Shown: positions 29,151 through 34,830 of the stretch, one piece after another
Layout of the letters: each line of letters begins with the position of its first letter
Position numbering within the stretch: position 1 is the first letter of the stretch
Origin: Candidatus Marinacidobacterales bacterium
GTDB taxonomy: Bacteria > Acidobacteriota > Vicinamibacteria > Marinacidobacterales > SMYC01
Reading direction: 5' to 3'
Length of the DNA: 64,000 nucleotides
Assembly (NCBI GenBank): GCA_965237955.1
Contig: OZ250169.1
Coordinates: 5,792,001 to 5,856,000, forward strand
Program-made: the position numbers and the translations under genes
Notes under the pieces: model-generated
Told to the model about the DNA's origin: nothing
The model's input: only the letters and a program-made list of their open reading frames with translations
Database searches by the model: none

Positions 29151-29196
29151 TTGATGATGATGAGATGAGTTTCCCGTTCACTCGGAGGTGGAAAGC

Positions 29197-31689
29197 ATGA
29201 AGGCAGTGCTTTGGCTAGTTTCGGTGTTTCTTTTTGCCCTTTTGGCGAACGCTGAGGAGGAGACGCCCTCGATCGCGGACAAGACCGCAGGGATGGAGCG
29301 TCTCGACGGTTTCTTCGACGTCTATTGGGACGAAACCACCGGGAAGTTGTATTGGGAGATCGACAAGTTCGACGAGGAGTTTCTCTACGCGGTCTCGCTG
29401 AGCTCCGGCCTCGGGAGCAATCCTGTGGGGCTCGATCGCGGCCAACTCGGTGGCGAGCATATCCTCGAGGCGAAGCGCATCGGTCCCCGCGTGCTGCTCA
29501 TGGAGCCGAACTACACTTATCGAGCCATCAGCGACAATCCTGACGAAGTGCAGGCGGTCAAAGACGCCTTTGCTCCGTCGGTCCATTGGGGGTTCGAGGT
29601 TGCCGCGGAGACCGGTGGCAGCGTCCTCGTGGACGCGACCGATTTCTTCCTGCGCGATACCCATGGAGCGGCCCAGCGGATCGAGCGTTCTGGACAGGGA
29701 AGCTTCCAGTTGGATCGTAGTCGCAGCGCGTTCTACATGGCGCGGACGAAGGCGTTCCCGAAGAACACCGAGATCGAGACGTTGCTCACGTTCACGAGTG
29801 GAAAACCGGGGCGGCTGGTGCGCTCGGTGGCCGCGAGCGGTGAAGCCATCACCCTGCGACAGCACCATTCCTTGGTCGAGCTTCCCGACGACAGCTTCGA
29901 GCCGAGAGTCGCCGATCCGCGTATCGGGGTCAACGGACCGACGTTCTACGACTACGCGACGCCCATCGACGAGAGCCTCACGGTACGATGGGTCGCGCGC
30001 CATCGCCTGGAGAAGAAAAACCCGGAGGCCGCTCGCTCCGAGCCGGTCGAGCCCATTGTGTATTACCTGGATCGTAGTGTTCCCGAGCCCATACGCAGTG
30101 CCCTCCTCGATGGAGCTCGGTGGTGGAACGAAGCGTTCGAAGCGGCGGGGTTCCTCGACGCGTTCCGCGTCGAGGTGCTTCCGGCCGGCGCGGACCCCAA
30201 CGACGTTCGTTACAACGTCATCCACTGGACCCACCGCTCGACGCGTGGATGGTCGTACGGCGGGTCGGTCGCCGATCCGAGGACCGGCGAGATTATCAAA
30301 GGCAACGTCAACCTTGGAAGCCTGCGACTTCGTCAGGACTACTTGATGGGCTCGGGGATGGCGCCGCTCTTCGACGGCGGAACCGCGAGCCCCGTGGGAT
30401 TGTCCGGTTGCGGCATGAGCGGGGTGCCGGGCTTTTCCTACCTCGCCCAGGTTGGGAGCGGTGCGAGCCCGCTCGAGATGGCTCTCTCGCGCGTGCGCCA
30501 GCTTTCGGCCCACGAGGTAGGTCACACCCTGGGCTTTCCCCACAACTACATGGCGAGCACCTACGGGGCCCGTGCGAGCGTGATGGACTATCCGGCGCCG
30601 CTGGTGCACATCCGCGACGGTGAGCTCGAGCTCTCCGACGCGTACGGAGTCGGTATCGGCGAGTACGACAAGCTTTCCGTCCGTTGGCTCTATAGCGATT
30701 TTGCCGGCGGCGTCGACGAAGTCCAGGCCCTCGACGCCATCGTCGAGGAAGGGCTCAGGAGCGAAATCCGGTTCATGACCCACACCGACAACTACATCGG
30801 TGCCGGGGCGCATCCTCTCGCGTCGGTGTGGGACAACGGCGCGAACCTCGTCGACATGCTCGACCACGAGCTCGAAGTGCGACGTATCGGCCTCGACAAC
30901 TTCGGCCCCGCAGTCATTCGCATCGGCGAGCCGATGTCACTTCTTGAGTTGGCGCTCGTGCCGCTCTACCTCCATCATCGCTACCAGATGAAGGCGGCGA
31001 TGAACACCGTTGGTGGTGCCGACTACTACTACGCTTTGCGCGGTGACAACCAGACTCCGGTCACGATCGTGGCTGGCCGCGAGCAACGTCGCGCGCTCGC
31101 GACGATCGTGCGGACGCTCGAGGCCGATTTTCTCGCGGTCCCCGAAGATATCCTGGAAATGATTCCGCCGCCCGCGTACCGCTACTCCGAAGGCGAGAGG
31201 TTTCCGCGGCACACCGGCCTTCTCTTCGATCCTCTGACGGCCGCCGACGTGTCGGCCGACTACACCGTGGAGTTGCTGCTGCATCCGGAACGCATGGCGC
31301 GCGTTGTTGACTATCACAGCCGGAGCAGCGACTATCCGGGGCTCGGTGAAGTCGTCGACGCGATGTTGGGCGTGACGTGGAATGCGGCGACGCCGGCCGA
31401 CACCTACTATGCTCAAGTGCAGGAAGTTGCTGAGCGGAGCGTTCTCGACGGTGTCATGGAGCAGGCCTCGAGCGCGGACAATCCGGCGCGTGTACGAGCG
31501 GTGCTCTCCGCCAAGCTCGACGAGCTGGCCGAGCAGTTGGATGCCTCGAGTGCTCGAAGCCCACACGAGAAACTCGCACTCGAGGATATTCGACGCTGGC
31601 AAAGTCGTCCCGAGGGCACGGTGCCAGGATCGAAACCACCCGAGATACCACCGGGAAGCCCAATCGGAGGCAACTCAAGCTCGAACTGA
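29197..31689 (+). CDS. Exported zinc metalloprotease (EcxA / DUF5117-DUF4953 type)
   Basis: Signal peptide; DPRTGEIIKG; HEVGHTLGFPHN zinc motif; SVMDYP Met-turn. Confidence 0.92.
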   Translation: MKAVLWLVSVFLFALLANAEEETPSIADKTAGMERLDGFFDVYWDETTGKLYWEIDKFDEEFLYAVSLSSGLGSNPVGLDRGQLGGEHILEAKRIGPRVLLMEPNYTYRAISDNPDEVQAVKDAFAPSVHWGFEVAAETGGSVLVDATDFFLRDTHGAAQRIERSGQGSFQLDRSRSAFYMARTKAFPKNTEIETLLTFTSGKPGRLVRSVAASGEAITLRQHHSLVELPDDSFEPRVADPRIGVNGPTFYDYATPIDESLTVRWVARHRLEKKNPEAARSEPVEPIVYYLDRSVPEPIRSALLDGARWWNEAFEAAGFLDAFRVEVLPAGADPNDVRYNVIHWTHRSTRGWSYGGSVADPRTGEIIKGNVNLGSLRLRQDYLMGSGMAPLFDGGTASPVGLSGCGMSGVPGFSYLAQVGSGASPLEMALSRVRQLSAHEVGHTLGFPHNYMASTYGARASVMDYPAPLVHIRDGELELSDAYGVGIGEYDKLSVRWLYSDFAGGVDEVQALDAIVEEGLRSEIRFMTHTDNYIGAGAHPLASVWDNGANLVDMLDHELEVRRIGLDNFGPAVIRIGEPMSLLELALVPLYLHHRYQMKAAMNTVGGADYYYALRGDNQTPVTIVAGREQRRALATIVRTLEADFLAVPEDILEMIPPPAYRYSEGERFPRHTGLLFDPLTAADVSADYTVELLLHPERMARVVDYHSRSSDYPGLGEVVDAMLGVTWNAATPADTYYAQVQEVAERSVLDGVMEQASSADNPARVRAVLSAKLDELAEQLDASSARSPHEKLALEDIRRWQSRPEGTVPGSKPPEIPPGSPIGGNSSSN

Positions 31690-32263: not shown

Positions 32264-32620
32264 ATGGACATTTGGATTCTCTTCGTAATGAACGCCGCAG
32301 TGCTCGCTATCCTGGTTGCGGGCTTCTTCGTCGTCACGAACGTGATGCTACGGAATGTTCCAGACAACCAGCGAGCTGCGGTCTTTCGCGGAGGTTCGTT
32401 TCTGAAGCTCGGCGGGCCTGGACGGACGCTCGTATTGCCGATGGTGGACCGGGCTGTCATGCTCACCATCGGCGATGAAGGCACCGCCCTGGTCGAGGGA
32501 CGCGCGCAGTTCGGGGGCGCGGATATCCCGGTGCGCTCGTCGGCGCATCTCGAATCAGGGGAGCGAGTTCGCATCATTGGTTTCGATCGCGAGGAAGCAG
32601 CGGTCATCTTGAAGGCGTGA
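32264..32620 (+). CDS. Small membrane protein with SPFH-like stub and NfeD-like C-terminus
   Basis: TM helix; [22 protein letters not shown]; IGDEG...GERVRIIG. Confidence 0.55.
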
Positions 32621-33078
32621 GCGTCATCTGTTGGGAGAACTACATGCCGCTCGCACGTATGGCGATGTACGACAAGGGTGTGGAGGTCTACCTCGCGCCG
32701 ACTGCCGATGCGCGGGATACGTGGCAAGCCACGCTACGCCACGTCGCTCTCGAGGGGCGGTGTTTCGTTCTGGGATCCAACCAGTACGTCACCAAATCGA
32801 TGTACCCGGACGATCTCGCGAGCATCGAGGAGCTCGAAGATCAGCCCGAGGTCATGTGCCGTGGCGGCAGCGTCATCGTCTCACCCTTGGGCGAAGTGCT
32901 CGCGGGACCGCTCTTCGATGAAGAAGGCATTTTGACCGCGGAGCTCGACCTCGGCGAGATCGCTCGCGCGAAGCTCGATTTCGACGTCGTAGGTCACTAC
33001 GCCCGCCCGGACGTATTCAAGCTCAGCGTCGACGAACGGCCGTCCCGCTCCGTCACCCGCGAGTCCGATTCAACGTGA
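32617..33078 (+). pseudogene. C-terminal half of a nitrilase
   Basis: [11 protein letters not shown] nucleophile motif at the very start and [14 protein letters not shown]; region carrying catalytic Glu/Lys absent. Confidence 0.75.
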
Positions 33079-33103
33079 GCGGTCGAGTTGCTACTCTAAC
33101 CAG

Positions 33104-33664
33104 GTGAGACTTCTGGCCGCGGTCGTCGCCATCGTTCTATCGGCCCTCAGTTGCGCTCCACCGACAAACTGGACGGATCTGCGTTCGGTCGACGATCTGA
33201 AAGACGCTTTCAACCGCGATCAAGGGCAAGTGCGCCTCGTCCTGATCTTGTCGCCGACGTGAGGGGTTTGCGTTCAGGGCGCCCGGTGGGTGCAAACGAA
33301 CATTCTCGACGCCAAGCCGGACGCCGCGATTCGCGTCTATGCGATCTTCTTCGAGATCGTCGCCGGAGACAAAGGAGCGAAATACGAAGTCGAACCTCAC
33401 GAGCTGCTCGATGACCCGCGGGTGACACACTTTTGGGATGAACGCAGGCTGACCGGCCGCTGGTTCGACGAGAACGTGACACGGATCGGAAAGCGCACCG
33501 GCGAAGAAGGCCGCATCGAGTGGGATACGTTCATCCTTTACGATGATCGCGCGGAGTGGACCGACGAGCCGCCGCACACCGTGAGCTGGGGACGGCCGGT
33601 TATTCAGGAAAAAACTCGCCTCCTCCGAGATCTGGAGGAAGCGTTGGCGCGCCTTCCGGAATAG
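33104..33664 (+). CDS. Candidate selenoprotein: thioredoxin-like lipoprotein with U-x-x-C (in-frame TGA at 33260-33262)
   Basis: MRLLAAVVAIVLSALSC...FNRDQGQVRLVLILSPT-U-GVCVQGARWV continues in frame into ORF 33290-33664; hairpin just after the UGA. Confidence 0.8.
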
Positions 33665-34830
33665 CTTCGCTCGGCGCAGGCCTTGGCGCGAGAAGCTTGA
33701 AAAGCGTCGGGAAGACGACTCCGGTCACGATCGCGAGGAGAATGACGGCGGCGCTCGTCGGGGAGTCGATCACTTCCATTTCCCGTCCCAGCGTTGCGAT
33801 GGCGACGAGGAGGGTCAACGGCGTCGCCAGCAGAAACGCGCCGGCGGCGACGGCGCGGAGTTGAAGTTCCAGCAACAGTAACAGGGTAGAGGGCACGAGC
33901 TTCGCGACCAGCGAGGCGAGGCCGAGAACGACGAGCGCTCGTCCCAACGTCGACACGTCACCAAGCGCGGACCATTCGAACGTGACACCCACATTAATAA
34001 AGAAAATAGGCACGAAGAAGCCCTGTCCGAGGGCCACTAGCTTGGTCTCGAGGACTCCGGTCTCGCGGAAGACGTAAGCGAACAACATCCCGGCCAAGAA
34101 CGCGCCCAGGATTGCCTCGAGACCCACCCACGCGGCGAGTGCCGCCAGGCCCAGCATGAGCACGAACCCGAAGCGCACGCCGAGCTCCGATGGGTCCTCC
34201 TCCCGCACCCATCGTTGAAAGCTGTGTGGAAACCACCAAGCCGCGAGCCGCATCAGCGCGAGCACCGCGAGGGCAACGACGAACAGCAGAAGCACCTGAA
34301 AGGCTGCCGCGCCCAGCTCGAGACTGATACCGTGCTTGATGGACGAGGTGGTATGCGGTAAGCGTCAGGAGAGTGAGGAACTCTCCGATGGAGCCCACGA
34401 GCAGGAGGATCTGGCCCCAGCGTGTTTGGGACGCGTTGGCCTCGACGAGCGCGACGAGAAGAACGCCGACCGACATCGCGCCAATCACGAGCGCCATGAA
34501 GGGTGGCATCTCGAGTCGCACCACGATGAACGCCGCGGTCGCGAGGACGAGGGAGGCCACCACGAACGCGAGGGTGACCGCCTTTCGTCCTTCACGCTCG
34601 ATGCGGTTGAAGTCGATCTCCATCCCGACGAGGAACATGAGGTAAATGAAGCCGAGCTCGGCGAGAAAATCGGTGGCTTGGCTCTCGTGGACCACGCCGG
34701 CGGCGCCAATGGCTAGGCCGAAGAGAATCTCGGCAACGGCCGCCGGCACGTGGATCCGGGACGCGACCAGGGGCATGAGAAACGCCCCGGTGTAGAAGAC
34801 GACGAGAGATAGGGCTTCAGCCAGCTCCAT
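33600..34830 (-). CDS. Cation:proton antiporter (CPA2/Kef-like), split by a frameshift near 34336
   Basis: LAELGFIYLMFLVGMEID in the first frame; GLEAILGAFLAG and GFFVPIFFINVG in the second. Confidence 0.85.

Follow-up and report, generated by a model that had tools for sequence, protein, structure and literature searches.

An uncatalogued family of UxxC thioredoxin-fold selenoproteins and its predicted exported member in a Marinacidobacterales bacterium

Selenoproteins with a UxxC motif in a thioredoxin fold have been catalogued as Trx, Prx-like oxidoreductase, redoxin, TIGR02187 PDO, SaoT, UGC-TlpA, HUIPC, and GOS_C (PMC13188914, Table 1), and bacterial SECIS (bSECIS) hairpins are recognized by a G-starting loop of 3–9 nt, located 16–37 nt after the UGA, on a stem of at least 4 pairs with an MFE of -7.5 or lower (PMC13188914). 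Thioredoxins and TlpA-type proteins have a cis-Pro at the start of strand β-3, where peroxiredoxins have Arg, and this residue is more conserved than CxxC itself and may keep CxxC from binding metal (PMC2757866). Within a 64,000-nucleotide stretch of DNA (the window), sequence comparison supports a real selenoprotein gene, assigned here to an uncatalogued family within the known UxxC thioredoxin-fold kind. The protein shares UxxC in a thioredoxin fold, TGA/Cys pairs, and a bSECIS hairpin with the catalogued members (PMC13188914), and it is set apart from the Table 1 families, as judged by family models, in that none of 39 family members matched NCBIfam 20.0, selenoprotein models included, better than E 0.0064. 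The extracytoplasmic TlpA/ResA/DsbE(CcmG)/DipZ reductases (PF08534, PF00578; PDB 3gl3, 5cyy, 2f9s) have the same fold, extra helix and strand (Z 11–13), with a CxxC-type site at the start of helix 1, and are further alike in the predicted membrane anchor and, at some loci, CcdA-like neighbours. Unlike them, the protein has Sec for the first Cys, SPT rather than W(A)xW before the motif, and apparently Trp-Asp without Pro at the start of β-3, as placed by the secondary structure of the model; the same 39 members gave only weak thioredoxin matches in Pfam (best E 0.0011) and did not reach the cut-offs of PF08534, PF00578, or the NCBIfam TlpA/DsbE models. The MerP/CopZ/HMA chaperones (TIGR02052, PF00403) also have an exported two-chalcogen site, and relatives directly follow merT or have MerT or HMA domains fused to them, but the fold is a different one, no HMA domain (PF00403) was found in this protein, and a merT match is absent from the genome and from the neighbourhoods of the clade. 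Similarly, GPx and deiodinase-like selenoproteins (PF00255, PF00837) are alike in the extended thioredoxin fold (Z 11.4 and 10.4), in Sec at the start of helix 1, and in Trp before β-3, but have CxxT or UPPF instead of UxxC and show no profile match.

The frame opens with GTG (33104–33106) and closes with TAG (33662–33664), which gives 186 aa with exactly one TGA, at codon 53 (LILSPT*GVC), and the 124-aa ORF at 33290–33664 is the downstream part of the same frame, as had been proposed in the sequence-only reading of this DNA (Table 1). Contigs from runs X1 (32400–33638) and X2 (33208–33739), either of which is possibly the source sample, cross the TGA with 0 differences, and an assembly error was therefore dismissed; TGC or TGT in the reads would have spoken for an ordinary Cys, and both assembled contigs give TGA. 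Among the RNA runs, contigs of X18, X19, and X20 also extend over the TGA (33118–33304 or 33126–33278) and X17 covers 33564–33716, but these were left out as evidence because contigs show no transcription and the shares are small, with X19 only guessed to be RNA and X18 and X19 yielding the same piece. From the comparisons below, the TGA is almost certainly read as selenocysteine; it aligns with Cys codons of homologues, and gene finders split the gene in two.

Table 1. Features of the selenoprotein gene and its surroundings (positions in the window)
Feature	Position	Strand	Basis
Selenoprotein gene, 186 aa, TlpA/DsbE-like thioredoxin fold	33104..33664	+	Frame, homologues, predicted model
In-frame TGA, predicted Sec53 of SPT-U-GV-C	33260..33262	+	Codon counts at 143 sites and CxxC relatives
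Cys56, second residue of the UxxC motif	33269..33271	+	Cys in 132/133 distinct genes
Putative bSECIS hairpin GCGCCC-GGT-GGGTGC, loop +23 to +25 (register B)	33279..33293	+	Folding, comparison, bSECIS model
W140-D141, start of strand β-3, place of the thioredoxin cis-Pro	33521..33526	+	Secondary structure of the model (inferred placement)
Predicted lipoprotein signal peptide, lipobox ALS-C17	33104..33154	+	Sequence pattern, clade conservation
Extended -10-like box TG-C-TACTCT, 6 nt upstream of GTG	33089..33097	+	Likely promoter of a leaderless mRNA (inferred)

Across 143 homologous sites (loci L009 and L040–L186), the codon at the Sec position was TGA in 123, TGC in 11, TGT in 8, and TCC in 1; the metagenome and GTDB loci among them were fetched by patterns from close relatives and are biased toward this gene's clade, and the 67 whole-genome sites alone gave TGA in 49, TGC/TGT in 17, and TCC in 1. 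TGA occupies the same codon across lineages down to ~30% identity, relatives carry TGA or Cys there and run through, and both redox residues are retained in 132 of the 133 genes. Exceptions include Ser at the Sec site (L136), short or shifted downstream frames (these and the Ser case comprising L033/L136, L093, L097, L099, L119, L138, and L139), and Trp at the Sec column in three representative proteins. An exhaustive search returned 953 clusters at 50% identity (E<=0.001), and the 149 top-ranked new representatives, with 152 domain hits, comprised 102 with CxxC, 40 that stop short of the motif, and 10 with other residues. The closest named relatives are Acidobacteriota; of 301 genomes sampled from the phylum, 51 carry the family, and within the host's own family it has members in 15 of 18 other genomes, where all 34 matches contain a TGA (anywhere in the match). 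The expectation that gene callers truncate such proteins was borne out, as none of 65 close database proteins contains the SPT motif and 63 of them measure 109–135 aa. Databases hold the Sec forms only as fragments without the active site, in a family that is mostly Sec-containing at the DNA level.

Searches of the protein against Pfam and NCBIfam gave no match above any cut-off, PDB sequence searches gave nothing significant (best E 0.035), and the family is not modelled in Pfam or NCBIfam. It is likewise not described in the examined text of PMC13188914 (Table 1 included), PMC13326102, PMC12013277, and bioRxiv 2022.07.06.499078, literature searches turned up no paper devoted to it, and the string "SPTU" is absent from the deep-Sep text and from the examined portion of the BSepDB supplement; supplementary data elsewhere in this literature may bear on the claim. 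One added HMM would fix many annotations and extend the selenoproteome known for Acidobacteriota, Actinomycetota, and Nitrospinota.

The hairpin after the TGA has a GGT loop 22 nt past the codon, 6 pairs, a free energy of -8.5 kcal/mol, and pair probabilities of 0.96–0.98, and it agrees on every point with the bSECIS model of PMC13188914. Its stability did not differ significantly from shuffles in four windows (z -0.75, -0.48, +0.16, and -0.71), and its support, drawn from aligned sequences, is comparative. The sequence, position, and G-starting loop given in the earlier reading stood, but not the extension by GTTTGC/GCAAAC; this pairing needs G33292 and C33293, both in the 3' arm of the hairpin, and is therefore an alternative to it and no extension, the predicted lower stem being CGUU/AACG. 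Two registers, A (pairs +13/+25 to +17/+21) and B (pairs +17/+31 to +22/+26), were defined on the first 30 loci and noted before the other loci were read. A hairpin in register A and/or B was present at 100 of 106 distinct TGA sites vs 0 of 17 Cys sites, resampling of synonymous codons (1000 draws) yielded 36 on average and never more than 50 against the 100 observed, and such a hairpin was found in 57 of 59 held-out loci. In a quick, midpoint-rooted tree of 125 of the 133 genes (8 short or broken ones omitted, SECIS-coded residues kept in the alignment), a 53-row clade containing this gene is entirely TGA and entirely register B (47 B only, 6 both), and the remaining 72 rows comprise 38 A, 6 both, 5 B, 5 neither, 17 Cys, and 1 Ser. 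Within the 53-row clade, +18 pairs with +30 in 51 rows (CG 39, GC 8, TG 3, TA 1), with the GC rows at three separate places on the tree. As +18 is the third codon position of Gly/Ala and +30 the third position of Val/Ala, compensatory pairing at these silent sites points to selection on RNA structure. The two putative clade-specific SECIS registers are new in this analysis, and the family offers a test of one SelB reading two registers, with natural Sec/Cys pairs as controls.

The machinery for Sec insertion, which had been named as a check, is present in the 8.13 Mb host genome (98% complete), where selA (544 bits), selB (366), selD (275), and tRNA-Sec (72.6) all score above cut-off. Within the phylum sample, selB occurs in 49 of the 51 genomes that carry the family vs 230 of all 301, where the lists were compared by eye, related genomes are not independent data points, and these tallies, like the 51/301, include the unpublished G024, on which nothing else here depends; the two family-bearing genomes without selB both have selA and a tRNA-Sec match (one over and one just under cut-off). 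On each of the three points at which the selenoprotein proposal could have failed, namely the sel machinery, the codon, and the homologues, the findings agree with it. A paralog at G000:C1:6706879-6707409 (-) (L009:6880-7410) is 33% identical, has TGA at the same codon (SPT-U-HN-C), a register-B hairpin, and its own N-terminal hydrophobic stretch; the single dsbD of the genome is ~14 kb away from it, and a TlpA-like gene is 8 kb away. The host genome is selenoprotein-rich. Further TGA-containing Prx/redoxin-like and deiodinase-like genes occur at its loci L189, L190, L194, L196, L197, L199, L205, L225, and L232, and folding nine such genes gave, for most of them, a hairpin whose loop begins with G or has G close to its first base. 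Redoxin genes at G000:C1:2853555, 2988689, and 8045530, at 2917183 and 7826395, and at 2081058 and 2979278 have equal or near-equal scores in two to three places, a pattern that suggests segment duplication or a redundant assembly (contamination 6.2%).

No clear Shine-Dalgarno site was found before the GTG and a promoter scan gave no sigma-70 site with a -35 box, and a leaderless mRNA starting at the GTG, a reading new in this analysis, is likely from the -10-like box. The same box with the 6-nt spacing and different spacer letters occurs in L040, L044, L101, and L102, a longer spacer in L043, and no box in L041 and L042. Family-wide, TANNNT precedes an in-frame start by 5–8 nt in 27 of 120 genes vs 22 of 1054 shifted tests, a comparison that is indicative only because the units differ. 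The lipoprotein-like signal that the GTG had been said to open was found again by pattern (MRLLAAVVAIVLSALS-C): the layout MR-LLAAVVAIVLS-ALS-C has a short basic n-region, a hydrophobic h-region, and a lipobox with Cys17 at 33152–33154. The lipobox-like Cys matches the pattern in 19 of 21 clade genes, and the remaining 2 keep a Cys there without matching the pattern. By a rule of our own, 106 of 114 TGA genes encode an N-terminal hydrophobic stretch, as do 14 of 19 others. The protein is likely to be exported and lipid-anchored.

The AlphaFold2 model of residues 21–186 (pLDDT 97, pTM 0.92) is one compact fold across both halves, with the core β1-CxxC-α1-β2...β3-β4-α3, and is consistent with the thioredoxin-like fold assigned from the sequence. 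The structure matches were led by 7djk (Z 13.2, rmsd 2.8, 131 aligned), followed by DsbE 3gl3 (Z 12.4, rmsd 3.4, 128 aligned), DipZ (Z 12.1), GPx (11.4), ResA (11.3), and deiodinase (10.4), and Foldseek ranked DsbE first with GPx close behind. In a profile comparison in which only the active-site region matches and the GPx and Prx profiles are small, TlpA reached an hhalign probability of 89 (43 columns), Prx 15, GPx 1, and deiodinase 1; the β-3 loop could not be placed in global profile alignments against these four. W140 is Trp in 115 of 124 genes and D141 is Asp in 121 of 124, with Pro absent from the D141 column and present three residues before it in 35 of 147 representatives. Asp appears to replace the cis-Pro in the model, the placement having been made by secondary structure. 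The family offers a test of whether a thioredoxin fold without cis-Pro is a reductase or a metal binder.

There is about an even chance that the protein serves as an exported selenol/thiol reductant of the envelope that works on the outer face of the cell membrane and is recharged by DsbD. The mRNA would probably begin at the GTG; SelB would almost certainly bind the hairpin and insert Sec, to judge from the machinery and the covariation; the predicted signal would be cleaved and Cys17 lipidated. From the fold and the motif, Sec53 would attack an envelope-protein thiol that is oxidised or blocked by a metal, Cys56 would resolve the adduct to leave a selenenylsulfide, and DsbD/CcdA would give electrons back; a conserved neighbour, an exported-type met-zincin protease, is a candidate substrate only. 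The reductant reading was chosen because the fold, paired redox residues, export, and DsbD fit it and because this copy is without a metal transporter partner. The nearest solved folds are of DsbE/TlpA/ResA/DipZ types, the active-site region fits the TlpA profile best, CcdA-like genes adjoin 10 of 133 members, and the host genome has one DsbD, no match to MerT, zf-CopZ, DF, or CcdA-like genes, and no MerA over cut-off. Against the reductant reading stand the apparent Asp for cis-Pro, the GPx folds that score nearly as high (Z 11.4), and the metal-type neighbours (27/133), which outnumber CcdA-like ones (10/133, 8%; 0/21 in the clade). The designation "oxidoreductase" stays tentative, as the cis-Pro of disulfide oxidoreductases is apparently missing and part of the family lies in metal-handling operons.

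The main rival is that the same selenoprotein is a periplasmic binder or chaperone for soft metals (Hg, Cu, Ag, and Au) like MerP, in which Sec53, Cys56, and Asp141 would hold the metal and then hand it to a transporter or sequester it; this is the less favoured but serious possibility, given that a merR-merT-copZ context recurs among other family members and that the protein apparently lacks the cis-Pro, which may otherwise block metal binding by CxxC (PMC2757866). ORFs clustered within 4 kb of the 133 distinct genes included MerR-family (13), MerT-like (12), CcdA-like (10), ArsR (8), zf-CopZ (7), and DF-family (7) neighbours, our own HMM found 18 MerT-like neighbours plus 2 fusions, and a MerT, MerR, or zf-CopZ neighbour or fusion accompanies 27 of 133 members (about 20%) in both main clades. 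Of 67 representatives scanned, 6 carry a fused HMA domain, and DF-family fusions and neighbours occur. However, 106 of 133 members lack such a neighbour (31 have <1.2 kb of upstream flank), by which a constant pairing with MerT was rejected, and six MerR neighbours scanned all fell below the MerR, CueR, and ZntR cut-offs, so that no metal was assigned. Moreover, some loci have their own HMA domain, the thiols of which the fold may instead keep reduced. In the 21-gene clade containing this gene none of the neighbour types listed above occurred, with 0/21 for MerT, MerR, zf-CopZ, and CcdA-like genes, and merR/merT were not found among the neighbours in the window; a MerT-free clade is new in this analysis. 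The label of the CcdA-like neighbours is weak, which counts against the reductant reading: one of six tested matched Pfam DsbD_TM, below cut-off, and their alignment to the DsbD of the genome, which covers both Cys motifs, is a weak one (E 5.5e-4).

Reductant and metal roles could coexist, since a reductant that frees metal-binding thiols would explain both contexts. A wider proposal, about as likely as the chaperone rival, is a selenium-based soft-metal trap of the envelope, in which Hg, Cu, or Au would be bound by Sec, Cys, and Asp owing to the loss of cis-Pro and the SECIS moved by five nucleotides during family evolution via overlapping intermediates; if true, the protein would replace MerP in merA-less merR-merT operons and be a stand-alone scavenger in marine Acidobacteriota. 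Operons of the order merR-(DF or zf-CopZ)-merT-family gene occur in L121–L186 (for example, L153, L181, L184, L139, and L128), and no MerA cluster was found among recurring neighbours within 4 kb. Actinomycetota-type members (L057, L060, L064, and L109–L118) adjoin CcdA-like, ArsR, and DF-family genes, and CcdA-like fusions were detected by motif in P0097, P0100, and P0101.

The Trp-Asn of GPx has a catalytic role. The GPx Trp-Asn motif was seen in L211–L213, and the same selenoprotein could act in the periplasm as a peroxidase of GPx/Prx type, with Sec as the peroxide-reducing residue and the invariant Trp-Asp in the role of the GPx Trp-Asn. Such a role is improbable, less likely than that of a reductant or a soft-metal chaperone: GPx is among the top Foldseek and VIA matches (TM 0.53–0.56, Z 11.4) and the host genome has no GPx match at E<=1e-15, but there is no similarity to the (small) GPx or Prx profiles, several TGA-containing Prx-like genes already exist in the host, and UxxC with an invariant second Cys is a dithiol pattern.

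That the TGA is a true stop, in a nonsense pseudogene, through an assembly error, or between two small genes, is very improbable; two neighbours are broken in this strain (a nitrilase by 5' deletion and an antiporter by frameshift) and the hairpin alone is unremarkable, but TGA or Cys (19 sites) is conserved at the codon, the SECIS covaries, both halves form a single compact fold, and the X1 and X2 contigs are identical, on which grounds pseudogene and assembly error were rejected. Genome-wide reading of TGA as Trp or another standard residue, to which the Trp of the three representatives would lend itself, has next to no probability and was rejected, since TGA is an ordinary stop that terminates 9 of the 11 genes checked in the window, every one of the 11 encodes Trp as TGG, and the column is Cys in most homologues.

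In this clade the chromosomal position is stable: valS and a met-zincin (DUF5117/DUF4953) gene precede the family gene, and genes for GGT, DLH, and threonine dehydratase follow it. The arrangement may simply reflect synteny among related genomes. The met-zincin gene (window 29188–31689, +; DUF5117 and DUF4953) is directly upstream in 11 of 21 clade members; here it follows hflK and hflC and is set off from the selenoprotein gene by three small genes. A nitrilase remnant (window 32617–33078, +), in which the X1 contig agrees with the window with 0 differences, corresponds to residues 162–312 of a 312-aa nitrilase that is whole in L101. A CPA2 cation/proton antiporter gene (window 33600–34830, -), whole (405 aa) in L042 and apparently also broken in L101, has a frameshift near 34300–34340 that leaves two overlapping ORFs; an X2 contig agrees with the window there, and the contig of X9 is one base short at 34336.
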